Of a DNA stretch of 32,000 nucleotides, positions 4,866 through 20,569 are shown in pieces. Each line of letters starts with the position of its first letter. Position 1 is the stretch's first letter. Origin of the DNA: Candidatus Electrothrix sp. GW3-4 (GTDB lineage: Bacteria; Desulfobacterota; Desulfobulbia; Desulfobulbales; Desulfobulbaceae); contig NZ_CP147990.1 in the NCBI RefSeq assembly GCF_037902255.1, positions 2,370,001 to 2,402,000 on the forward strand, written 5' to 3'. Below the pieces are notes generated by a model, which did no database searches, was not told the DNA's origin, and was given only the letters and a program-made list of their open reading frames with translations. Both the position numbers and the translations under genes were made by a program.

Positions 4866-6032
4866 CTACCGCACACTACGATCCAACATAGCCCGCAGGC
4901 CGCCCTGCTCGCTCGGGGTAGAGCCAAAAACCTCCTGCCAGATATTCTCGCTCTCCATGCAAAAGTAGATGCAGGTGCGGGGATGGGCAAAGCGGGCCAG
5001 CTCATCAGCGATGAGCTGGTACATCTCCACCCGCTGACTCCGGAAATAACGGGCCTTGCCGTCCAGCCCCTCCACAAACTCCTCATAGAAAAACCTGGAC
5101 TGGGGAAAGCGCTCAGCAGCGATATTGCGTAAGGCGGGCAGATAACGCAGGGCCCCCAGACTGATCCAGGCGATACGGTCCGCAGGCACCGTGCGAAAGA
5201 GCTGCCGGATGGTGGCCCGGTAGCCCTCCTGCCAGCCCTCATGCCAGATAATGGGATCAAAATGAAAGGCCAGGCGATAGCCCCAATCCGCACAACGGAC
5301 CGCAGCGGCCAGCCGCTCCTCCAGACTGGCGGTCCGGATCTCTTCCTGTTCCATAATCGGAGGACTGTTCAGAGACCAGGCCACCAGGGTACGCCCGCCG
5401 TGATCCAGCCCTTCCAGGTTGTCTATGACCACGGACTTGGACTTGAGCTCCAGGACCGCGTTCTCCTTATCCCGCATATAGTCCACCAACAGGGGGCTAA
5501 AACGAGTCAGGCTGTCCAGGGCCAGGCTGTCGGTGAACTCGCCAGTACCGATACGGAGAAAGGTCTGCGGGTCCGCGGCAAAGGCCGCATCCAGCTCAGC
5601 GAACAGGTCTTGGATATTGACAAAGAAGCTGATCCAGGGGTTATTGAGATAGGCCTGGAGAATGCAGTAGACGCAGTCCATGGGGCAGCCCATGCCGATA
5701 TTAAGGACCTGGTATTCACAGCAGGTGTACTCCCGGGTAGCAGGACAGGGCTTAAAGAACTGGCCCCGGTTCCGACAGAGAAGGAGGTAGTGTTTGCCCT
5801 GGCTCAGGTTACCCGGATAGGCCCCGGCAACCACAGGGTGCTGCCGGTCCCCAATGACCGTGACTGGCAACCGACTCCGCTGCATGATCTCCTGGGTATA
5901 GGGATCCTGCTGGCACTCTTCGCTCACATAGAGTTGGGTGATGTATTTTGCTGGATCGCCGTAGGACATGAATGCTGGTTTTCTTTTATATGAAAGTGGT
6001 CGGTGAAACCAACCAGGCTTCCCTTCTTTCAT
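4866..6032 (-). CDS. Spore-photoproduct-lyase-family radical SAM protein (SplB-like)
   Basis: The radical SAM cluster motif is GCPMDCVYCILQAY, and overall length and layout fit the SPL family. An alternative start lies at MSYGD, 22 codons in. Confidence 0.8.
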   Translation of the reverse strand: MKEGKPGWFHRPLSYKRKPAFMSYGDPAKYITQLYVSEECQQDPYTQEIMQRSRLPVTVIGDRQHPVVAGAYPGNLSQGKHYLLLCRNRGQFFKPCPATREYTCCEYQVLNIGMGCPMDCVYCILQAYLNNPWISFFVNIQDLFAELDAAFAADPQTFLRIGTGEFTDSLALDSLTRFSPLLVDYMRDKENAVLELKSKSVVIDNLEGLDHGGRTLVAWSLNSPPIMEQEEIRTASLEERLAAAVRCADWGYRLAFHFDPIIWHEGWQEGYRATIRQLFRTVPADRIAWISLGALRYLPALRNIAAERFPQSRFFYEEFVEGLDGKARYFRSQRVEMYQLIADELARFAHPRTCIYFCMESENIWQEVFGSTPSEQGGLRAMLDRSVR

Positions 6033-8644: not shown

Positions 8645-10339
8645 TTACTGCTCTACGACCTGCTCTTCAAAGGCGGCCAGCTGCCCTTCCAGCTTCCACT
8701 GCATGGCAGCCCGCCTACTCCCCTGGAGGAATCGGTTACAGGAAGCAGAGCCATGAGTGGCTCCAGCAGGATCTTGAGCGCAGGCATTGACAACTCGCTC
8801 ATAACGCCCCTCTTCTTGCCAGAGACTTGCTCCGGGCAGGAAACTATGCTCCACACTGGCCCGGACCATCCGCTTCAGCTCAGAGTATCCGAGATGCTGA
8901 TGCGTCACCGCCCGGACAAACTCATCAGTGATATCAATCCGCAGGATCCCTGCATGGTCAGTGGCCAAGACGACCGGAACTCCCTGGCCCAGGTAGAGAT
9001 TCAGGGGGTGAGAACGTCCTGTCTTCCCCAGCAAGACGGCGTTGGAGGTCAAGCAGGCCTCGACCAGCACGCCCCTCTCGCGCATCCTCGTAAGTAACTC
9101 GGTGTGGTCCTCCTCGCCCAGCACGTCACAGCCGTGCCCGACCCGCTCGGCATGCCCCATTTCCACAGCATGACGGATGTGGAATTTCAGATGCCATTGC
9201 CCCTCCAGAGTATCTGGCACGAGTTCCGGGATCAGCTCACCAGCAGGCAGGGCGATCCGAACAGGTTGTTGCTGGGTATCGGCTTGTTTGAGGCGATGGA
9301 GCACATCCAGGGCAAACATCTCGTCATCATAATAGGCAAGCGAGTTCTCATGCTCCTCCGGCCCCATCAAGCCAATCCCTAAAACCAATGGTGATTGCCG
9401 GGCGAGCTCGTAACCGTAGACCCATTGGCCAAACACATACCCTCGATCCCTGGTCCGATTGGCAGACATAAGAAATCTGACCTCCACAGCACAGCCTGGA
9501 TCAGGGTTGCCTGTCTTGCAACCAAGCAAGTCCCGGGCACCGGCCACCCATTTTTTCAGATTAGCAGTGGTATGAGCCACGGTCTTTTGAAAAAGCGGAT
9601 CCGCCATGATCTGTTGACGCCTTTTCAGCAATACCGTTTCGGTCCACGGATCATCCGGCTGAATATATCTGGCAGCACGTTTGCCCACCTGATCTGAATT
9701 AAGACCATGCAGCAACTCCACATAGGAGTGTGTGTTCTTTCCGGCAATAGACAGGATATCGGCCAGACTATCGACCAGGCGTTTCTTGGAAAGCACCGCG
9801 TCGAATTTATCCAGGGCATCCCAAAAATGCTGCTGCGCCTCCTGTCTGCTGCCCTGAAAATGCTCCATGGACCACTCCTGCACAATTTTCCGGTGCAGGG
9901 CTCTCTCTGCCATGGCCTCTTGCATGGGCACGGCCTTTCCTTGACAGGGAGGCGATTCTGCTGTCCAATTCTTCCGGTTAATGCAGAGGCCATCAGCAGC
10001 ACCCCATGCAATCAGACGCTCCGTGCTCACGGACCCGGCAAGATCCATATGGAGACCTGCACCTTTAGGTAGAGGTAAAAAAAACTCCCGCAACTGTTCC
10101 GGGTCGTGCGCCAGAGATCGTAATTTCCAGTCAATGAGCATTTCCCGATAACGGGCATCGTCCTTGCTCGGGGATATCAGGCGGGTATGTTGTTTCTGAA
10201 CGGTTTCTACCGGAACCTGGGCCATACGGGTTGCTCCTCTGGTCTTGACAACTTTGGTGTTGACGGGCAGGATACAGCCCTGGAGAGTCAAACCTATACC
10301 CATGACACACAGCCAGGATGTTTTTCGTATATTTTTCAT
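8645..10339 (-). CDS. Adenosine/AMP-deaminase-family protein, predicted lipoprotein
   Basis: A signal peptide with lipobox LTLQGC, then ADA-fold landmarks (ERVGHG, CLTSN, LATDHAG). Several canonical metal-ligand positions look substituted (see findings). Confidence 0.7.
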   Translation of the reverse strand: MKNIRKTSWLCVMGIGLTLQGCILPVNTKVVKTRGATRMAQVPVETVQKQHTRLISPSKDDARYREMLIDWKLRSLAHDPEQLREFFLPLPKGAGLHMDLAGSVSTERLIAWGAADGLCINRKNWTAESPPCQGKAVPMQEAMAERALHRKIVQEWSMEHFQGSRQEAQQHFWDALDKFDAVLSKKRLVDSLADILSIAGKNTHSYVELLHGLNSDQVGKRAARYIQPDDPWTETVLLKRRQQIMADPLFQKTVAHTTANLKKWVAGARDLLGCKTGNPDPGCAVEVRFLMSANRTRDRGYVFGQWVYGYELARQSPLVLGIGLMGPEEHENSLAYYDDEMFALDVLHRLKQADTQQQPVRIALPAGELIPELVPDTLEGQWHLKFHIRHAVEMGHAERVGHGCDVLGEEDHTELLTRMRERGVLVEACLTSNAVLLGKTGRSHPLNLYLGQGVPVVLATDHAGILRIDITDEFVRAVTHQHLGYSELKRMVRASVEHSFLPGASLWQEEGRYERVVNACAQDPAGATHGSASCNRFLQGSRRAAMQWKLEGQLAAFEEQVVEQ

Positions 10340-13063: not shown

Positions 13064-14275
13064 TCATCTGACCGGATCTTTCAGCACCAGCACAAAGACC
13101 GTCAGCATAACCAGGGCGCAACTGGCCCCGGCATAAAAAGCCCCGTCTGTTCCCCAGAGCATAAAGAAAATTCCCATCAGGAGAGGCCCTAAGGTCTGAC
13201 CCATCCGCAGGATCATACTGTTGACCGCCATGAAGGAGGCCCGGTACTCCAATGGAGCCAGTCCGGCCAGCATGGTCTGAACCGTGGGAATATTCAGGCC
13301 CTGGCCCATGCCAAAGAGGACCAGGGGGAAAAAGAGGAGTGGGAGGTTGGGCACCAGGGGGAGCAGGAACAGGGCCACGCTATAAAAGATATAGGCCGTT
13401 GTCAGGAGCTGCTTCTTGCTATAATGTTTTGCCAACCTGCCCATTTGAGAAGAGGTAAAAGCCATGGTGCAGGCCATGCCGGACATGATCAGGCCGATGA
13501 GCGGGGTCGATGCCTTGAAGGTCTGACTGAGCAGAAGGGGAAAATAGGTGAGATAGGAGCCGTAGAGGATAATAAAGGTGATCAGGGTGGCCAAAAAGAG
13601 CAGAGCGACATCAGGCTGTCGCACAGCCTGCCAGATATTGCCCAGGTAGCCTTTGAGGGGACGGTTACTCTTCGGTTCCGGGTTTTTCAGAAATAACAGG
13701 ACAAAGAAGCCCACCGGCAGGGCAAACAGGGAGAGGTAAAAAGGGTACTGCCAGCCTGCCGCTGCCAGGAGGCCACCCAGGGCCGGATAGCTGGCCACCC
13801 CAAGGCTGAGGACACTGGTGTTATAGCCCATAGCGGCGTCCCGCTCCCTGCCGGTATAGAGGTCACCGATCAGGGCAACGTTAATAGCGGGCAGGGCTGC
13901 CGCGCCGATCCCCTGCAAGAAGCGGAGGAGAAGCAGCAGCGGAAAATCCTTGGTCAAGGCACAGGCCCCGCCAGCCAGAGCGAACAGGAATAAGGATGGG
14001 GCCAGCACCCGCTTTCTGCCGAAGCGGTCAGCAAGTACACCGAGGATCGGGGTAAGGAAGACGCCCGGTACCGTGAACACGGTGATCAGCAACCCGATGT
14101 CTCGGGGAGAGATGTTCAGCTCCTTGATGATCTTGGGAAAGGCCGGAGTGAGACTGGCTACTCCCATGACCGCCATCAGGGTGACGGAGAAGATGATGTG
14201 CAGGTTGCGGTCGCGCAGCAAAAGACTGCGACGATCCTGCGATTCTGGGTTTGGTTTCATGAGGTTATTATGCAC
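13064..14275 (-). CDS. MFS transporter
   Basis: About 12 predicted TM segments and the MFS loop motif GVLADRFGRKRV. Confidence 0.9.
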   Translation of the reverse strand: MHNNLMKPNPESQDRRSLLLRDRNLHIIFSVTLMAVMGVASLTPAFPKIIKELNISPRDIGLLITVFTVPGVFLTPILGVLADRFGRKRVLAPSLFLFALAGGACALTKDFPLLLLLRFLQGIGAAALPAINVALIGDLYTGRERDAAMGYNTSVLSLGVASYPALGGLLAAAGWQYPFYLSLFALPVGFFVLLFLKNPEPKSNRPLKGYLGNIWQAVRQPDVALLFLATLITFIILYGSYLTYFPLLLSQTFKASTPLIGLIMSGMACTMAFTSSQMGRLAKHYSKKQLLTTAYIFYSVALFLLPLVPNLPLLFFPLVLFGMGQGLNIPTVQTMLAGLAPLEYRASFMAVNSMILRMGQTLGPLLMGIFFMLWGTDGAFYAGASCALVMLTVFVLVLKDPVR

Positions 14276-15330
14276 CGTTTAGCACTACGTTCATACTTAT
14301 TACTTGAATCTAGGCACACTAAATAATCTGTCGGCAACTGGAACCCGGTCTCCTCACCGGCAAGGAGCAGGGAAACCGTTCGTCGCACCCGTGCTTCCTC
14401 CAGCTTATCGGCCAGCTGATCAAGATGGGTTGCGCGGGATTGGATCAGGCGTTCCCGCGCAGCCTGATACTGCTGCAAGGTGATGTCCGCCGTACGATCA
14501 CGGGCGCTCTTGTCCTTCCAGGCCATCTCGTAGGCCAGGGCATTGACCAGCCACGGCTGGCCCTGGGTGTCCTGCCAGACTTCAGCAAAAATCTCCGGGG
14601 CAAAGGCCTGACCGGTTTCCTGGGTATGCTGTTGATAGAGCAGATGGATTTCTTCCTGGCTAAAGTTGCCCATACGCAGGGATTCCGCTTTGATGTTAAA
14701 GGCAGAACCGCCGGTGATCACCTCTCCGTCCGCCTGCCGGATCCGGTAATCCTTGACATCCCGCACACCGCAAAGAACCACGGTCTGGGGAAAGGCGGCA
14801 GGACGCTGGTTATAGCCGCTACGGAGCTGACGCAACAAAGAAATCAGAGTATCACCGACCAGGGCGTCCACCTCATCCAGAAGCAGGACAACAGGCTTTG
14901 CGCTTTCTCTGGACCAACGAGCCAGAAGCGCTTCCAGAATACCGTGGCTCCCACGTTGTTCCTTTTCTTCTCTAATCCATTGATGCAGGCGTTTATCTTT
15001 GAAATAGACCGAGGCAGATTCCGCAATGGTCCGTGTCACCTCATACATGCCCTGTTCAACATTGTTCCGTGCAGTCTGGGCGGTTTCAATATTGGCATAC
15101 AGGCATATATACTCGTCTCCGCTATTCAGATAGTCCATCAGGGCGAGCAGGAGGGAGGTCTTGCCGGTCTGCCGGGGGGCGTGGTGGGCAAAGTATTTCT
15201 TCTGTTGGATCAGCAGGAGGAATTCATCCGCATCCAGCCGGGAGAGCGGCGGCAGGGCGTAATGATCCTCCAGGTTGACCGGGCCTGCGGTGTTGAAGAA
15301 TTTTATAGAGGCTGTGGTTCTTTTTTGCAA
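14257..15330 (-). CDS. AAA-ATPase-like (P-loop) protein, probably C-terminally truncated or divergent
   Basis: FFNTAGPVN.EDHY is a family-typical N-terminus. Walker A is PRQTGKTS and Walker B is VVLLLDEVD. TTG start. The last ~16 codons are AT-rich, unlike the rest, and overlap the MFS start by 19 nt. Confidence 0.75.
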   Translation of the reverse strand: MQKRTTASIKFFNTAGPVNLEDHYALPPLSRLDADEFLLLIQQKKYFAHHAPRQTGKTSLLLALMDYLNSGDEYICLYANIETAQTARNNVEQGMYEVTRTIAESASVYFKDKRLHQWIREEKEQRGSHGILEALLARWSRESAKPVVLLLDEVDALVGDTLISLLRQLRSGYNQRPAAFPQTVVLCGVRDVKDYRIRQADGEVITGGSAFNIKAESLRMGNFSQEEIHLLYQQHTQETGQAFAPEIFAEVWQDTQGQPWLVNALAYEMAWKDKSARDRTADITLQQYQAARERLIQSRATHLDQLADKLEEARVRRTVSLLLAGEETGFQLPTDYLVCLDSSNKYERSAKRCIITS

Positions 15331-15340
15331 AGCTGTTCAG
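15175..15340. repeat. 166-bp direct repeat, copy A (leader plus first 52 codons of the ATPase gene)
   Basis: Identical base for base to 16073-16238 by manual alignment. Confidence 0.95.
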
Positions 15341-15400
15341 AGCAAACGGTGCAGGGCGCACACTAAACACCTAACAGGAAGTAGGTGAACAGATATCAGT

Positions 15401-15706
15401 CTATTGTTTACCTATTGGCCTTGCCCGATTAATCCGGTCCATTCTTTTCGGAGAATGCAGAGCCTCCCAAAGGTCATTACGCTGCTGAAGATTCAGCCAA
15501 AAATGTGCTGTATTGCCGAACACCTTAGCCAGCATCAGAGCAGTATCAACTGTTATCGCTCTCTTGCCAGTACAAAGCTCGTTGACAGTCTTCCGGCTTA
15601 CACCCATTGCAGCAGCCAGCTGTACCTGAGTAATCTCCTGCGGTGCCATAAACTCTTCAGTAATCATTTCCCCGGCACTCACAGGCTGACGTTTAGTAAG
15701 AATCAT
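15401..15706 (-). CDS. higA: HigA-family antitoxin (XRE HTH)
   Basis: ITQVQLAAAMGVSRKTVNELCTGKRAITVDTALMLAKVFG..FWLNLQ. Located 9 nt after higB. Confidence 0.9.
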   Translation of the reverse strand: MILTKRQPVSAGEMITEEFMAPQEITQVQLAAAMGVSRKTVNELCTGKRAITVDTALMLAKVFGNTAHFWLNLQQRNDLWEALHSPKRMDRINRARPIGKQ

Positions 15707-15715
15707 TTGTCTTCC

Positions 15716-16012
15716 TCATCTGTACGTGTGATTATCAAGATAGACGTCGTCCGCTTCTCCACTTTCTGCATTCCAAGTGAAAATAAGACGCCATTGGTTA
15801 TTGACTCGTATAGAGCACTTCCCCAGTAATTTCCCAGCCAATCTCTCAAAATGATTGCTAGGAGGGCTTCTTAAATCTTCATCACAAGTAGCATCATCAA
15901 GCAATTGCAGCTTTCGAAACAATCGTGAACGAAGGGTTGAAGGAATTTTCTTGGAATGAGTATCCTCTATGAAAAACTTCTTCAGCCATTTATCACGGAA
16001 ACTTTCTATCAT
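15716..16012 (-). CDS. higB: HigB-like toxin (RelE/ParE superfamily, plasmid-maintenance killer type)
   Basis: A 98-aa protein with F.D..L.K......K.P......L..KL..L..A....DL..PP.N..E.L.G.....SIR.N.QWR..F. The toxin-first order is typical of higBA. Confidence 0.85.
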   Translation of the reverse strand: MIESFRDKWLKKFFIEDTHSKKIPSTLRSRLFRKLQLLDDATCDEDLRSPPSNHFERLAGKLLGKCSIRVNNQWRLIFTWNAESGEADDVYLDNHTYR

Positions 16013-16013
16013 A

Positions 16014-16047
16014 GTTACAATGTAACACTCATGGTTACATCCTGCAA
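16014..16047 (-). promoter_or_regulatory. Candidate higBA promoter/operator
   Basis: Three GTTACA/TGTAAC half-sites lie at 16014-16019, 16021-16026 and 16034-16039. On the minus strand, TTGCAG (16047-16042), a 17-nt spacer and TACATT (16024-19) end 6 nt before the ATG. Confidence 0.4.
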
Positions 16048-16054
16048 GTTCTGA

Positions 16055-16228
16055 TTATTTGCAACGTCTGGCGGGGGCGTGGTGGGCAAAGTATTTCTTC
16101 TGTTGGATCAGCAGGAGGAATTCATCCGCATCCAGCCGGGAGAGCGGCGGCAGGGCGTAATGATCCTCCAGGTTGACCGGGCCTGCGGTGTTGAAGAATT
16201 TTATAGAGGCTGTGGTTCTTTTTTGCAA
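16055..16228 (-). pseudogene. Duplicated 5' fragment of the AAA-ATPase gene (52 native codons, then ARRCK-stop), ending just before the Walker A motif
   Basis: Lies within repeat copy B. Its translation is identical to the ATPase N-terminus up to ...YFAHHAP, then diverges to a TAA stop at 16055-16057. Confidence 0.7.
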
Positions 16229-16238
16229 AGCTGTTCAG
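16073..16238. repeat. 166-bp direct repeat, copy B
   Basis: 100% identical to 15175-15340, offset by 898 bp. Partial similarity continues about 8 nt further (gtctg..). Confidence 0.95.
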
Positions 16239-16561
16239 TTAGTTTCGTTTTTTTGCTTTGAGCCCTGCAACTGCTCGACCTCATTTACAGAAAGACCGGT
16301 AATTGCAACCACAACCTGCACTTCCAGTCCTTGTTCCAAAGATCGCTTGGCAATCATCATTTTCTCTTCTTTTCTCCCTTTTTCAACCGCACCTTTTTGA
16401 AAAAAAATAAAATCCCGCCGCTTGCTCTGCAACTCAAATTCTTCCTCTGGTAGACTATCTGTATTTGCCATACGTAATGTTTCCCTCAACAAGTCGGTAG
16501 GTCCGCTTGAGTGAAACGAAAGCGGACTGTCTATTTTTCGAATTGTCTGATTTTGTTGCAC
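16235..16561 (-). pseudogene. Remnant resembling the C-terminal tail of Rpn/YhgA-like PD-(D/E)XK recombination-promoting nucleases
   Basis: ...KGRKEEKMMIAKRSLEQGLEVQVVVAITGLSVNEVEQLQ matches the characteristic C-terminal helix motif of that family, and the nuclease domain is absent. Family recalled from pattern only. Confidence 0.4.
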
Positions 16562-16583
16562 TCAACCATACCTACCAAACGGC

Positions 16584-17720
16584 TCATTCAGCATTTTCAG
16601 AATCTTTCAACGAATCTTCAGACATTTCCTGACGTCGCTTATTATATTCGATAAATTCGGCGGCATGATGACGGCGGCCAAGCTCAAGATGATCCTGAAT
16701 GGATTTATTGCGCGTAAAAGTCGTGTTGGAGGCTGCGTCATGAAATCGGTAGAGGTAGAGCATCTTGTCCAGGTGCAGACATTTTGAATGCAAGAAGAAT
16801 CTTGCGTACAGTTCCCAATCGTCGGCAACCGGAAAATTTCTATTGTATCCTCCGAGACTGCGCAGCGTATCCGCCCGGTATGCACGGACATGATTTGGTC
16901 CGACAGTCAGAAACCAGCCAAACAGCTGATGATGCTCAGGGCCAAAGCTGTCATAAATATCAGGATTGAGGCATTCTCTGTATATCTTTCCCCGGTACTC
17001 AGTATCCCGGTAGCGATCCTTCCAGAAATCACCGTCGAACATATGCGGGCTGCCATCGGAGAAAAAGCTGGCACAGTTTGAATAAACCATCCCCACTTCA
17101 GGATGGGCATCAAAGGCTTGACGAACCTCCTCCACCGCATTATCGGTGAGCATATCATCGTGGTCCAGTTCGATCAGGTACCTGCCATTGGCCATCCGGG
17201 TGGCGACATCCTTCAGGTGTCCGATCTTGCCGCTGTGTTTTATCTGCATCGGACGGACCCGGTAGTCTTCCCTTGCCAGCTCAAGCAGTTTCTGCCAAGT
17301 ACCGTCGCTGGATTCATCGTCCACCACGCACCATTCCCAGTTCGGATACGTTTGTTCACGAAGAGATTGATAGGTGTCTCTGAGAAAATCCCCAGTGTTA
17401 TAGGTTGGCGTATAGATGCTGATCAGTGGCAGGGACTCGTCCAGATGATGGGGGCCGAACAATGTGCCGATATAGCAGCTGTCAATAGCAAGGGTCACCT
17501 CGTCATCCGAGGCATCGGGATTAATATGTATCCACTTTTTCCGTAACTCCAGCCCGGCAATATTTAAAGCCCCTGGAGCAAACTCGCTGGTGACAAGGAC
17601 ATCCGGGGCGAATGAGGCAATATCCCGGAACAATCCGCTGATGTTTTCGCAGACTTTTACTTCATAGGGTACGGTCCAGCTCTTGCCAATAAAGAGCACT
17701 TTTATCCCTGCTGTGGGCAT
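16584..17720 (-). CDS. Family 2 glycosyltransferase with an ~95-aa N-terminal extension
   Basis: ISIYTPTYNTGDFLRDTYQSLREQTYPNWEWCVVDDESSDGT and the DHDD (DxD) motif. SD GGAGG. Confidence 0.85.
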   Translation of the reverse strand: MPTAGIKVLFIGKSWTVPYEVKVCENISGLFRDIASFAPDVLVTSEFAPGALNIAGLELRKKWIHINPDASDDEVTLAIDSCYIGTLFGPHHLDESLPLISIYTPTYNTGDFLRDTYQSLREQTYPNWEWCVVDDESSDGTWQKLLELAREDYRVRPMQIKHSGKIGHLKDVATRMANGRYLIELDHDDMLTDNAVEEVRQAFDAHPEVGMVYSNCASFFSDGSPHMFDGDFWKDRYRDTEYRGKIYRECLNPDIYDSFGPEHHQLFGWFLTVGPNHVRAYRADTLRSLGGYNRNFPVADDWELYARFFLHSKCLHLDKMLYLYRFHDAASNTTFTRNKSIQDHLELGRRHHAAEFIEYNKRRQEMSEDSLKDSENAE

Positions 17721-17765
17721 AGGTCAATCCTCCAGTCTTACCCAGGGGAAAAGGGGACTACTTGG

Positions 17766-18125
17766 TTATGGCAACAACTGAAGAGGCCTTGCGTCCAGCC
17801 CGGTTACATGAAGAAGTTGTTTGTCATTGGTGAGCAAGGTTGCCTTATTGACAAGAGCTGTCGCGCAGATGATAGCGTCAGGGGTTTTCAGTTTACGAGT
17901 TCTTTTTAGGGCAATAGTTTCATTTTTAATGTTTTCATCCAGCGGGTGGATAAGGATGTCACGGAAAAGATTTCTAAGCAAGTTTTCATGCTTATCGGAA
18001 AGCCCGGAGAAAGAAAGTAATTCGATTTCGGTAATGACAGATATACCGTACGCATCTTCAGCAAGCGGTGTTGCCAGTTGATTGTTGAGCAGGTAGATAA
18101 CAGCATTAGTGTCAAGAATCACCAT
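17766..18125 (-). CDS. vapC: PIN-domain ribonuclease toxin (VapC-like)
   Basis: MVILDTNAVIYLL..., later acidic residues (TEIEL; TNDKQ) and DAIICATAL. The start is chosen at ATG 18125, 1 nt after the upstream stop. Confidence 0.8.
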   Translation of the reverse strand: MVILDTNAVIYLLNNQLATPLAEDAYGISVITEIELLSFSGLSDKHENLLRNLFRDILIHPLDENIKNETIALKRTRKLKTPDAIICATALVNKATLLTNDKQLLHVTGLDARPLQLLP

Positions 18126-18126
18126 C

Positions 18127-18330
18127 TCACCATTCCTCGTCTCGGATTTTCCTTTGATATTCAACGCCGTCCACAGGCCATTCGACCCGACCGGCATATT
18201 GCATTATATCAGCAGACTGAGGCTGACTCTTCTCTTCTATAATTTTTATTTTATTTCTCGGTAACCCCCTGAGCATTGAGAGTATTATTTTATACAAACT
18301 GTTATCTATTTCCAGATAGAGCGTTTTCAT
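18127..18330 (-). CDS. Putative antitoxin partner of the PIN toxin
   Basis: A 67-aa ORF whose stop abuts the vapC ATG (TGAgATG). The C-terminal ...W..DGVEYQRKIRDEEW tail is typical of small PIN-associated antitoxins. SD GAGAGG. Confidence 0.6.
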   Translation of the reverse strand: MKTLYLEIDNSLYKIILSMLRGLPRNKIKIIEEKSQPQSADIMQYAGRVEWPVDGVEYQRKIRDEEW

Positions 18331-18534
18331 GATGTGCCTCTCTGTGGATTGTCCCCATTTCCATGTCGTAAGAATATGATACCGTTGTTCCTGTTGTCCT
18401 ACAAGAAATATTTCTTATGGAAAAAACGTGCATGTTCGAGTGGTGGTCAGCCTTACCCAGGATGTTACCCTGGGCTGGTTATATATTGCCCTTTCAAGGC
18501 ATCGGTATCCTGTTGATCCGTCGGGCCGCGCGTA

Positions 18535-18792: not shown

Positions 18793-20232
18793 TTAATCCT
18801 TGAGGCAACGGACAGAGAAGCCGCCTGCGCGGCTGTAGCTGAACAGGGAGGCGAAGCCGCTACTGAAGTCCAAGACGCGGGCGCTGGCTCCATCGACCGT
18901 ACTGCCCCAGTAGATGCCGCTGCTGCCCGCGTTGCCGAGCGTGCCGAAGCTGCTGCGATAACCTGCCGCTACAAGCTTCAGGGGTGAATCAAAAAGTGCG
19001 ATGCCGGTTGCTCCGTATTGATCGATCTCATCCTGCCACTCCGTATCTGTGGGCAACCGGAAGCTGGTGGGACAGGGATTATTTATACCGGCTACACCAT
19101 TCCAGAGCGCGGGGTCCGGCGTGCTCAGCCAATCTGTGAAGCCGGTTATAAAATTCCCATGATCGGGTTGGGGCTGTGCGCCACCCCATTGAGTACCTAC
19201 AGTGCCGCTGTCCCGCTGTTCATGGCCGTCTGTCGGTCGGCCCCACTGGTACAGATCGCCGTAGGCGGCTGTATCGTCAAACGACGTTGCCACCTGACTC
19301 GCACCCAGGTTGCGGTCCATCCAGACCTTGCCGGTAGCAGATGTAACCGTGGGTACGGATAGATCATATACCTTAGTCAACGACATCCAAGCAGTACCGT
19401 CGCACCCCTCGAAATCCGACCCGCTCCAACGGATCTTCCCTGTAGCGGCCGCGTCACAATTCGCGGAAGATGACTCCAACTTCAGCTCACCATCCACATG
19501 CAAGGCCGCCGCAGGGGTGGCTGCACCCGGACCAATACCCACATTCACTGTCGCGGTCACTTGGTCGGTTCCATCTGTCCAGGAGCTGGTACCAGCGGGG
19601 CCTGTGGGGCCTGTGGGCCCCTGAGCACCCTCTGCACCTTGTGGCCCTGCTACTCCCTGCGGACCTTCTGCACCCTGAACTCCCTGAGATCCCTCTGCAC
19701 CTTGCGGACCTGCTACGCCCTGCGGACCTGCTACGCCCTGCGGACCTTCTGCACCCTGAACTCCTTGAGCACCCTGCGCTCCTTGTGGACCTGCTACTCC
19801 CTGCGGACCCTCAGCACCCTGAACTCCCTGAGATCCCTCTGCACCTTGTGGACCTGCTACTCCCTGCGGACCTTCTGCACCCTGAAAGCCCTGAGCACCC
19901 TGCGGGCCAATTTCACCCGTATCACCCTTCCCCGCCATCAGGCTCCAATAGGTCTCATTGGGCGGAATATTGGCGGACGAGGACTCATGATTCTTCACGC
20001 AGAGATAGCTACTGCCACCGTACTGCATCCCGTCTCCGATGGCATACTGAAAGCCGTCCTGCCACTCTCCGGTCCAATAGATGGACGCACCGATATTGGT
20101 CGTACTGCCCAGCGGTATCACCACCACTTTATTCGCCTGCACCGCAGGCGCAGTGAGCATTAAAGAGACCAGACATAGGGCTGCCAGGCTCCGATTTTTT
20201 TTCCTGCTGCTGAAATCTTTCGTTCTTTGCAT
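18793..20232 (-). CDS. Secreted mosaic protein: signal peptide, CBM5/12-like module, collagen-like GXY region, beta-rich stalk, and a C-terminal FISUMP (Fibrobacter succinogenes major paralogous) domain
   Basis: The start is set at ATG 20232 (SD AGGAGA; signal LAALCLVSLMLTAPAVQA). The CBM-like motif is YWTGEWQDGFQYAIGDGMQYGGSSYLCVKNH....P...YW. There are 38 GXY triplets. The FISUMP motifs are VWMDRNLGA..YGDLYQWGR...NPCPTSFRLPTDTEW...GFSVRCLKD. Confidence 0.85.
   Translation of the reverse strand: MQRTKDFSSRKKNRSLAALCLVSLMLTAPAVQANKVVVIPLGSTTNIGASIYWTGEWQDGFQYAIGDGMQYGGSSYLCVKNHESSSANIPPNETYWSLMAGKGDTGEIGPQGAQGFQGAEGPQGVAGPQGAEGSQGVQGAEGPQGVAGPQGAQGAQGVQGAEGPQGVAGPQGVAGPQGAEGSQGVQGAEGPQGVAGPQGAEGAQGPTGPTGPAGTSSWTDGTDQVTATVNVGIGPGAATPAAALHVDGELKLESSSANCDAAATGKIRWSGSDFEGCDGTAWMSLTKVYDLSVPTVTSATGKVWMDRNLGASQVATSFDDTAAYGDLYQWGRPTDGHEQRDSGTVGTQWGGAQPQPDHGNFITGFTDWLSTPDPALWNGVAGINNPCPTSFRLPTDTEWQDEIDQYGATGIALFDSPLKLVAAGYRSSFGTLGNAGSSGIYWGSTVDGASARVLDFSSGFASLFSYSRAGGFSVRCLKD
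19585..19926 (-). repeat. Coding tandem repeat (9-bp GXY periodicity with nested 63/144-bp higher-order units)
   Basis: For example, 19657-19719 and 19801-19863 differ at about 4 of 63 positions. The protein blocks GAEGSQGVQGAEGPQGVAGPQ recur 48 aa apart. Confidence 0.9.
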
Positions 20233-20296
20233 ATACTTTCTCCTGTTTTCCAAACGGAACGCCCAATCGCCCATTAATATTTCTGTTTCTCTGCTA

Positions 20297-20569
20297 TCAG
20301 GAAATCCCGATCGCATTACGTCCAGCGCATTTCGCATCGTTGATCGTGATCTGACAGGCATCAGCCGGGGTCATCTGGCGACAGTTGGGCAGCAGGCTGG
20401 TGACCGGCTCTTCCGCCGGGCCATGGGGTCCCACGCTTCCTTCGACTCCCTCCCGGTTAACCTTGATATTGCCCGAGCGGAGCTCGTCCTTGAGCACAGC
20501 CACCACAACACAGACAACTATCACCAAGCCCACAGCGACAACCGAAGCGATCTGTACCTTTTCCGACAT
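20297..20569 (-). CDS. Small single-pass membrane protein (hypothetical)
   Basis: A 90-aa ORF with an N-terminal TM (IASVVAVGLVIVVCVVVAVL) and a strong SD (GTAGGAGAAAACCATG). It sits directly upstream of the collagen-like gene. Confidence 0.55.
   Translation of the reverse strand: MSEKVQIASVVAVGLVIVVCVVVAVLKDELRSGNIKVNREGVEGSVGPHGPAEEPVTSLLPNCRQMTPADACQITINDAKCAGRNAIGIS

Follow-up and report, generated by a model that had tools for sequence, protein, structure and literature searches.

A higBA toxin-antitoxin cassette between long direct repeats at the 5' end of an ATPase gene in Candidatus Electrothrix

Small restriction-modification (RM) systems are found in some bacterial genomes between two long direct copies of their target sequence. 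This arrangement was published as 'insertion with long target duplication' by Furuta, Abe & Kobayashi (2010, NAR 38:2428; PMC2853133), following Nobusato et al. (2000, Gene 259:99). The repeats of these RM insertions have a length of 46 to ~420 bp and often lie across a start or stop codon, an empty site exists in a related genome, mobility genes are missing and the mechanism is unknown; a cycle of insertion, amplification and release was proposed for RM cassettes, which is unobserved (PMC2853133). Here we describe such an arrangement around a higB-higA (higBA) toxin-antitoxin (TA) pair, located at the 5' end of an ATPase gene in the cable bacterium Candidatus Electrothrix sp. GW3-4. The analysed stretch of 32,000 nt (contig NZ_CP147990.1, positions 2,370,001 to 2,402,000; in the following the window) belongs to a single-contig genome of 4,642,691 bp, which we designate G000. 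Coordinates without prefix are window positions. Thirteen other species genomes of the genus Candidatus Electrothrix were used for comparison and carry G-numbers, and loci of relatives or contigs carry L-numbers. Our literature search returned no paper that describes long target duplication with TA cassettes or in Electrothrix. In the original prediction, which was made from the window alone, the arrangement was regarded as no textbook mode of mobility. However, its signature had already been published for RM systems (PMC2853133), and the locus adds a further example to a known type of scar and is not a new mobility mode.

Repeats and insert of the higBA locus

The locus comprises the following features, in which R1 and R2 designate the two copies of the repeat R and G005 is a congener described below:

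15167..15340, minus strand: R1, the downstream target copy, which contains the stop of an Rpn-family gene, 6 nt of spacer and ATPase codons 1 to 52-55; its perfect part is 15175-15340
15341..16072, minus strand: the insert of 732 nt, consisting of the higBA cassette with 60 nt upstream and 60 nt downstream
16066..16238, minus strand: R2, the upstream target copy, which makes an ATPase stub; its last 8-10 nt (C-run one base shorter, CGC and not CGG) match R2 of G005 and not R1
15716..16012, minus strand: higB, a RelE-fold toxin of 98 aa (PF05015, E = 4.4e-31, 107.7 bits against a cutoff of 27)
15401..15706, minus strand: higA, a helix-turn-helix (HTH) antitoxin of 101 aa (HTH_3; NCBIfam HigA equivalog TIGR02607, 98 bits against a cutoff of 47.7)
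16014..16039, minus strand: overlapping TGTAAC / GTTACA palindromes directly 5' of the higB ATG
15349..15387, minus strand: two terminator-like hairpins (15387-15368 and 15361-15349) in the 60-nt spacer between higA and R1

A repeat search revealed that 15175-15340 and 16073-16238 are 100% identical over 166 nt, at an offset of 898 nt. In a self-megablast of the genome the duplication extends to 15167-15340 and 16066-16238 (174 nt, 98.85% identity, with one mismatch and a gap of 1 nt in a C-run). The duplicated segment thus comprises ~175 nt, and the differences between R1 and R2, one base of the C-run and one G/C change, are confined to its last 8-10 nt. When the whole genome was searched, exactly two copies of the 166-mer and one copy of the 732-nt insert were found. 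A perfect repeat of this length cannot be a chance product. It contains 10 nt of leader, of which the first base immediately precedes the TGA stop of the upstream gene, and 52 codons from the TTG start. On the minus strand the 3' end of R1 reads ...CACCACGCCCCCCGGCAGAC and is followed by CGGCAAGACC, which is the Walker A region; that of R2 reads ...CACCACGCCCCC-GCCAGAC and is followed by GTTGCAAATAA. The insert's GC content is ~41-48%, compared to 52-60% in the ATPase gene. Its cargo is the TA pair and ~100 nt of non-coding DNA only, without a mobility gene, and no Rfam match was found in 14000-18500. Thus, the repeat search with its genome-wide count of two copies, and the open reading frame (ORF) and domain searches, agree with the original prediction that identical 166-bp direct repeats bracket higBA and that the insert contains only higB, higA and a putative promoter/operator region.

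The original prediction had also proposed a comparison with ATPase loci of related genomes that are devoid of the insert, and four such loci were found. In G010, G008 and G001 an Rpn-family gene, one R and the ATPase gene follow each other with nothing in between, and in G002 a single R is located directly behind a TPR gene. The single-copy R in four congeners indicates that G000 carries an insertion by which the target was duplicated. We therefore favor, with a probability of roughly 0.6, the explanation that the higBA cassette was inserted at the 5' end of the ATPase gene, behind the Rpn stop codon, and that ~175 nt were duplicated in this event.

The locus resembles the RM insertions in many respects. 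The cassette is small, of the addiction type and without transposase or integrase; the insert is shorter than 20 kb; the bracketing direct repeats of tens to hundreds of bp are longer than 30 bp, are not multi-copy and extend over the start or stop of an adjacent gene; and a matching, single-copy empty site exists in relatives. In contrast to the RM insertions, the cargo is a type II TA pair and not a pair of R and M gene homologues, the repeats are homogenised in one genome and diverged in another, and the histories of cassette and flanks are decoupled. HigB family toxins are ribosome-dependent mRNases. Thus, an explanation by DNA breakage, as given for RM enzymes, is not directly applicable here.

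The original prediction interpreted the locus as a Campbell-type integration. Like the integration of a suicide plasmid, it shows the order of 5' stub, insert and full gene copy, with a repeat length that corresponds to the homology patch. Unlike in such integrations, neither a circle nor a replication origin or transfer function is known here, and the sequences of the cassette-adjacent repeats do not fit a single recent donor. Moreover, Campbell integration cannot make the first insertion. Of this interpretation, the insertion with target duplication stands, in agreement with the four empty sites. A circle could account for spread to homologous sites, although this is unproven, but it cannot account for the founding event. 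A further comparison concerns the TA cassettes of chromosomal integrons, for example the Vibrio superintegron, which are also promoter-bearing pairs that can be exchanged in variable slots (in Electrothrix behind lysS, see below). Here, however, no integron integrase was seen, and the brackets are local target copies. We rejected an integron cassette, since the 60-nt tail contains GTTAGGT but on inspection neither an inverse core nor a long imperfect palindrome, and hence no attC-like site.

Profile searches detected the toxin domain of HigB and a downstream HigA-type antitoxin, as needed for membership in HigBA. The toxin gene is first and higA starts 10 nt past the higB stop. With the toxin and HTH antitoxin domains, this gene order and the upstream palindromes, the locus is like the HigB-HigA type II TA systems, and judged from their sequences the cassette genes appear to be an ordinary HigBA pair of which the insertion context alone is of interest. 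The TGTAAC/GTTACA palindromes are retained in the 85%-identical cassette of G003, although the intervening spacers vary, and they likely represent a candidate HigA operator. A consensus scan upstream of higB did not reveal a sigma-70 promoter. Between different contexts, the cassettes are similar from ~45 nt before the higB ATG to CCTGTTAGG, 30 nt after higA, where the similarity stops; the first hairpin is part of this 30-nt tail, which is conserved at every occurrence of the cassette. The putative hairpins in the spacer between higA and the ATPase gene argue mildly against co-transcription of the latter from the TA promoter. In the empty sites the ATPase gene starts 6 nt past the stop codon of the Rpn-family gene, which means that the insert did part the ATPase gene from its upstream gene. 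Recombination between R1 and R2 could, in principle, excise the TA module precisely.

Age of the insertion and history of the cassette

A filled site with the same cassette, the same two junctions and an intact ATPase gene is present in G005. The left junction common to G000 and G005 is ...CGCCAGAC/GTYGCAAATAA (CGCCAGAC/GTCGCAAATAATCAGAAC) and the right junction is ...CCGTTTGCT/CTGAACAGC (GCACCGTTTGCT/CTGAACAGC), the slash marking the joint. This architecture of G005 was recovered again in the Logan assembly of SRR25385360, which is 100% identical to G005 over 7.4 kb. With a degenerate pattern of the operator, no further filled alleles were found in metagenome contigs, and in genome contigs only the 85% cassette of G003 (a metagenome-assembled genome of Desulfobulbaceae) was retrieved. 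HigB relatives in metagenomes reached at most 76% aa identity. The search for exact HigB returned only the source run of G005, that for exact HigA gave no match, and the plasmid and phage collections contained no close copy of the cassette.

In G005 the two repeat copies are ~91% alike, with nine differences in the last 100 nt and three in the first 29. R2 is split in this genome by an insert of 379 bp (L024 4775-5145) with 21/42-nt tandem repeats, and 47 nt were lost. Read from the start codon of the stub, this insert gives an ORF of 128 aa in which a DIQNEILDVQNE-like motif is repeated. Between G000 and G005 the identity is 91.6% for R1, 91.3% for the shared part of R2 and 88.6% for the remaining ATPase gene. 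Later changes differ between the two genomes: in G000 the Rpn gene was shortened from its 5' end and the ATPase gene from its 3' end, and G005 gained the 379-bp insert in R2 and upstream insertion sequence (IS) elements.

A recent event had originally been proposed to account for the perfect repeats. However, G005 shares structure and junctions but has diverged repeats, with R2 broken by a later insert, which is the finding that the original prediction had itself named as speaking against its view. Based on this comparison, the insertion appears to be old and common to the sister species, not fresh, and to have occurred once, before the present ~9-11% divergence of the flanks between G000 and G005 arose. 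The diverged repeats at the same junctions in G005 suggest that the perfect identity in G000 is most likely due to later gene conversion. Thus, ongoing gene conversion, which the original prediction gave as an alternative, is the better of its two explanations. As listed above, the junction-side 8-10 nt of R2 in G000 have the CGC state of R2 in G005 and not the CGG of R1 in G000. The homogenising tract, in the simplest case a gene conversion between R1 and R2, would have ended 8-10 nt before the junction in G000. In addition, CAC is found in both copies of G000 and in R2 of G005, and CTC in all other ATPase alleles; this agrees with conversion but is weak evidence.

Identical repeats could also be an artefact of assembly or polishing. 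In this case, the structure would be real, and short reads cross-mapped between slightly different copies would have made them look identical. Indeed, the repeat of 166 nt exceeds the typical length of short reads. However, other repeat pairs of 80-190 nt in the G000 assembly retain 2-9% divergence, which indicates that this assembly does not flatten repeats in general, and the two copies at the higBA locus still differ in the adjoining 8 nt. We therefore consider such an artefact very improbable.

The cassette itself has a different history. Only 3 of its 732 nt differ between G000 and G005 (99.6% identity), compared to 119 of 1110 positions (~11%) in the aligned flanks. From the flanks, 78 differences would be expected in the cassette, and the Poisson probability of three or fewer is ~7e-30. 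The longest identical run has 559 nt (16062-15504); together with the neighbouring runs it ends at a distance of no more than ~10-22 nt from either cassette border. The HigB proteins are identical, and HigA differs by one residue and by a change of the stop codon to Gln, resulting in 111 aa in G005. Other stretches of the window shared with G005 are 73-91% identical, mostly ~80%. Judged from this distribution of differences, recombination appears to have decoupled the history of the cassette from that of the flanks, and we infer that homologous recombination with other alleles gave the cassette its separate history. Two scenarios fit. In the first, the interior of the cassette would have been replaced recently from a copy sharing only the cassette. 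In the second, the filled locus would have spread recently and its flanks would have been overwritten afterwards by the alleles of insert-free relatives. The overwriting tracts would then stop at the cassette border, where homology ends; tracts crossing this border would delete the addictive module. The ATPase gene is a mosaic: over a long stretch in which G000 differs, the protein of G005 is nearly identical to that of G010.

Where did the cassette come from? The same higBA lineage is located behind lysS in G003 (85% identity over 15370-16056), and an orphan higA (81-83%) occupies this lysS slot in G001 and G008. The slot is 4-6 kb upstream of the ATPase gene, in the same orientation. In G000 a syntenic lysS is retained ~6 kb upstream, with other genes and no higBA behind it. 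Between CCTGTTAGG and R1 there is a filler of 29 nt (15341-15369), for which, as for the junction sequence, no other copy was found in G000 or in the compared loci. As the filler matches nothing else, a local origin remains a live rival to import. Accordingly, the locus could have arisen without import by a tandem duplication reaching from just upstream of higB behind lysS to ATPase codon ~55, followed by deletions of the genes between higA and R1 and of the original higBA copy. Bacteria commonly undergo tandem duplication by illegitimate recombination, and the orthologous genes behind lysS in G003, G001 and G008, as well as the syntenic lysS of G000 that is now without higBA, would be in line with this. 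On the other hand, at least three events would be required, the filler is unlike the sequence downstream of higA in any relative and unlike anything in G000, the 99.6% identity across species would be left unexplained, and cassettes without a local source show the same signature (see below). In our view such a local rearrangement is rather improbable.

Bracketed cassettes at other loci and possible routes of spread

The same signature was found at several other sites in the genus. The slot behind lysS holds different TA genes in different species. In G010 hicB is located between 91-nt copies of the lysS 3' end, which are 93% alike (L023 9100-9190 / 9649-9739). HEPN-MNT genes are located between lysS 3'-end copies of 37 nt in G008 (L022 4733-4769 / 5501-5537) and of 26 nt in G003 (L026 1323-1348 / 1793-1818). 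The Rpn-family gene, together with the ~80-nt leader upstream of it, lies inside repeats of 37-43 nt in G010 (L023 4828-4864 / 5816-5852) and G008 (L022 609-651 / 1581-1623). In G002, which is without the gene, the bracketing sequence is single-copy; the second copy encodes the last 8 codons of Rpn and the stop. Rpn (YhgA-like) proteins are recombination-promoting nucleases (Kingston et al. 2017, PMC5350276; Zhong et al. 2023, PMC10400941), and the stop codon of the Rpn-family gene is also the insertion point of the higBA cassette. The association of the Rpn-family gene with these insertions is positional only.

Genome-wide, local direct repeats of ~80-190 nt bracket vapBC, a second higBA, phd-PIN, a YhcG nuclease gene, an AAA_21 ATPase pair and others in G000. 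The following cassettes have direct repeats of 90-190 nt on both sides:

C1:1100617-1101525: a PIN gene and its partner
C1:1807383-1808266: the second higBA
C1:3269051-3270079: phd-PIN
C1:4262149-4263237: vapBC
C1:3526004-3527873: a gp49-like/XRE pair
C1:4235838-4237772: the AAA_21 ATPase pair

In relatives, a clear pattern emerged for one other locus of G000 only, that of lysA. Here, a YhcG/DUF1016 nuclease gene (C1:3747523-3748911; L045) is located between 111-nt copies of the lysA 3' end, which are 91% alike. This site is filled in three genomes, and nine others are similar only as far as lysA itself, up to where the first repeat copy stops. In G009 and G005 (L050 2966-4250; L052 3000-4222), the YhcG cassette together with one lysA fragment is found at an unrelated locus beside RM genes. 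Some candidates were set aside. Locus a of G000, which adjoins tRNA genes, may simply be the scar of an integrase, at loci l and m the brackets are REP-like multi-copy palindromes and not target copies, and the pair C1:1547281/1548986 belongs to an unrelated diversity-generating retroelement (template and variable repeat). The latter region (C1:1546688-1549301) is likely such a retroelement, with a reverse transcriptase gene beside a target of the formylglycine-generating-enzyme type and 70-nt repeats that are 93% alike.

Repeats around such pairs are not limited to the genomes. About 9 of the 58 environmental contigs that contain a HigB relative and enough flank carry repeats of 75-270 nt around the pair. 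In the unrelated sediment metagenome contig L070, for example, 154-nt repeats (504-657 / 1744-1897, 92%) span the start of a branched-chain aminotransferase gene and enclose a 73%-identical HigB, its HigA and a transposase fragment.

These data also bear on the possibility that the locus is an eroded integrative element, i.e. a recombinase-bearing island that brought a replacement 5' end and decayed to the addictive TA pair. TA modules often outlast their carrier elements, and an island directed at gene ends leaves part of a gene behind in duplicate. However, neither in G000 nor in G005 was an integrase or a remnant of a tyrosine or serine recombinase detected between the repeats, the limits of the 732-nt insert are the same in both genomes, and the many targets with repeat lengths from 26 to ~190 nt in one genus are unfit for one recombinase. 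An eroded element is, in our opinion, extremely improbable.

A more serious alternative concerns the spread of the cassette. A circle of ~0.9 kb, consisting of the cassette and one R, could be excised by recombination between R1 and R2, move between cells and re-enter the 5' end of an ATPase gene by its homology patch; the copies in G000 and G005 would then be separate and fairly recent integrations of one circle lineage. Both junctions would be located inside the circle, and thus independent integrations would share them. The cassette identity of 99.6% across species, against a flank difference of ~11%, would be explained, and the YhcG cassette with one lysA repeat at an unrelated locus in G009 and G005 points in the same direction. 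A cycle of insertion, amplification and release was proposed for RM cassettes by Furuta et al. (PMC2853133). On the other hand, this scenario gives no account of the first insertion at a never-occupied site. It also predicts a donor-type R next to the cassette, but R2 of G005 and R2 of G000 differ at 8 of 92 positions up to the junction. Finally, a copy of the higBA cassette beside a solitary R did not turn up elsewhere in 14 congeners, metagenome contigs, plasmids or phages. We regard separate integrations of such a circle as unlikely.

For the insertion with long target duplication, we propose the following course of events. The founding junctions would have been formed by illegitimate joining, either of imported foreign DNA or by a local tandem duplication and deletion that moved the pair from the lysS slot. 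The unit of repeat, cassette and repeat may then have passed to insert-free relatives by double crossover in the flanks, or alternatively as an excised circle of repeat and cassette by Campbell recombination. Killing by HigB after loss of the pair would select against deletion between the repeats.

Several points weigh against this explanation. In the searched data there is only one other filled allele, so that the single old event rests on two genomes. The structure of G000 and the identity of its repeats are known from the assembly alone, and the direction of the conversion relies on few informative sites. The near-identity of the cassettes could reflect a recent spread with later overwriting of the flanks. 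Given the unmatched filler of 29 nt, microhomology at the founding junctions is not assessable. Furthermore, loci b, c and d of G000 could not be retained as proven target duplications, since their flanks are occupied by IS elements or multi-copy repeats and clean empty sites were not found.

One can speculate, with considerable reservation, that the addiction and defence cassettes of cable bacteria spread without recombinases: repeat-bracketed units would be excised as circles or fragments of cassette and repeat, cross species borders and re-enter, through homologous recombination of the host, the gene end of which they carry a piece, and toxin killing would block their deletion. We consider this general scheme doubtful. 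If it were true, the 99.6% cassette identity inside flanks of 89% identity would be the trace of such a cycle, and the locus would supply the step of 'release and re-infection' that was proposed, but never observed, by Kobayashi's group for RM cassettes. How small TA or defence cassettes move without transposase or integrase is mechanistically open, and the signature of long target duplication has been in print since 2000 without a mechanism. In Electrothrix one site is present in several states within one genus, namely empty, filled between repeats that are either diverged or homogenised, and with decayed flanks. Together with the decoupled history of the cassette and the sister events a few kb away, this provides a usable natural series for studying excision, circle formation and re-integration.

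Neighbouring genes in G000

The flanks of the insertion contain the following features:

14257..15330, minus strand: AAA_35 / AAA_22 ATPase gene, 3'-truncated, 357 aa (profile search)
16055-16228, minus strand: ORF of the ATPase stub, 57 aa, ending with ...HHAPARRCK*
16239..16492, minus strand: 3' remnant of the Rpn-family (PDDEXK_2) gene, last ~85 codons (listed ORF 16235-16561)
16496..16575, minus strand: leader element of ~80 nt with a hairpin, located 5' of the Rpn-family gene in relatives; synteny ends here
13064..14275, minus strand: gene of a transporter of the major facilitator superfamily (MFS), the conserved downstream flank

The ATPase gene downstream of the cassette had originally been described as full-length and intact. 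This has to be corrected: it encodes 357 aa in G000, compared to 530 aa in G005, 538 aa in G010 and 522 and 524 aa in two paralogues of G000. Similarity to all relatives ends at 14323. A deletion of 3.3 kb joins ATPase codon ~327 to sequence upstream of the MFS gene (14257-14325), with a microhomology of 1-2 nt at most, and removed the C-terminal ~200 aa of the ATPase together with a gene for an S9 peptidase (836 aa), which is still present in G005. By this comparison the cassette-bearing ATPase gene of G000 is a pseudogene. In contrast, two other elements of the original description were recovered. The truncated stub was read as the ORF of 57 aa and stops immediately ahead of Walker A (PRQTGKTS in the downstream copy), and the Rpn-like remnant upstream matches positions 193-273 of the 273 positions of TIGR01784.

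The Rpn-family gene is intact in G005, G010, G008 and G001, with 276-279 aa in relatives (169 bits with the same model), and its first ~190 codons are gone in G000. The remnant still has the leader of ~80 nt and ~85 codons of the C-terminal part; an ATG at ~16471 is in frame. In the E. coli rpn genes the C-terminal part is translated separately, as an antitoxin (PMC10400941); by analogy, the remnant in G000 could still yield a separately translated C-terminal protein. The ~80-nt element forms an 8-bp hairpin (GTCCGCTT...AAGCGGAC), is present in ~14 copies in G000 (among them C1:620636, 624971 and 627851) and in many copies in every congener, and has no match in Rfam. A role as leader of Rpn genes was rejected, since the element is absent beside close Rpn paralogues elsewhere in G000.

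Upstream of this element, an orphan GT2 glycosyltransferase gene is located at 16584-17720; its 91%-identical copy in G005 is ~1 Mb away from the ATPase locus. A second TA-like pair adjoins the GT2 gene, consisting of a PIN-domain gene (17766-18197) that is overlapped by an ORF of 67 aa (18127-18330). Further upstream, 18793-20361 encodes a protein of 522 aa with a collagen-like GPQGAxG region and DNA repeats with a 9/18-nt period at 19601-19965. This collagen-like gene occupies the place of the NTPase and TPR genes of G010 and G008.

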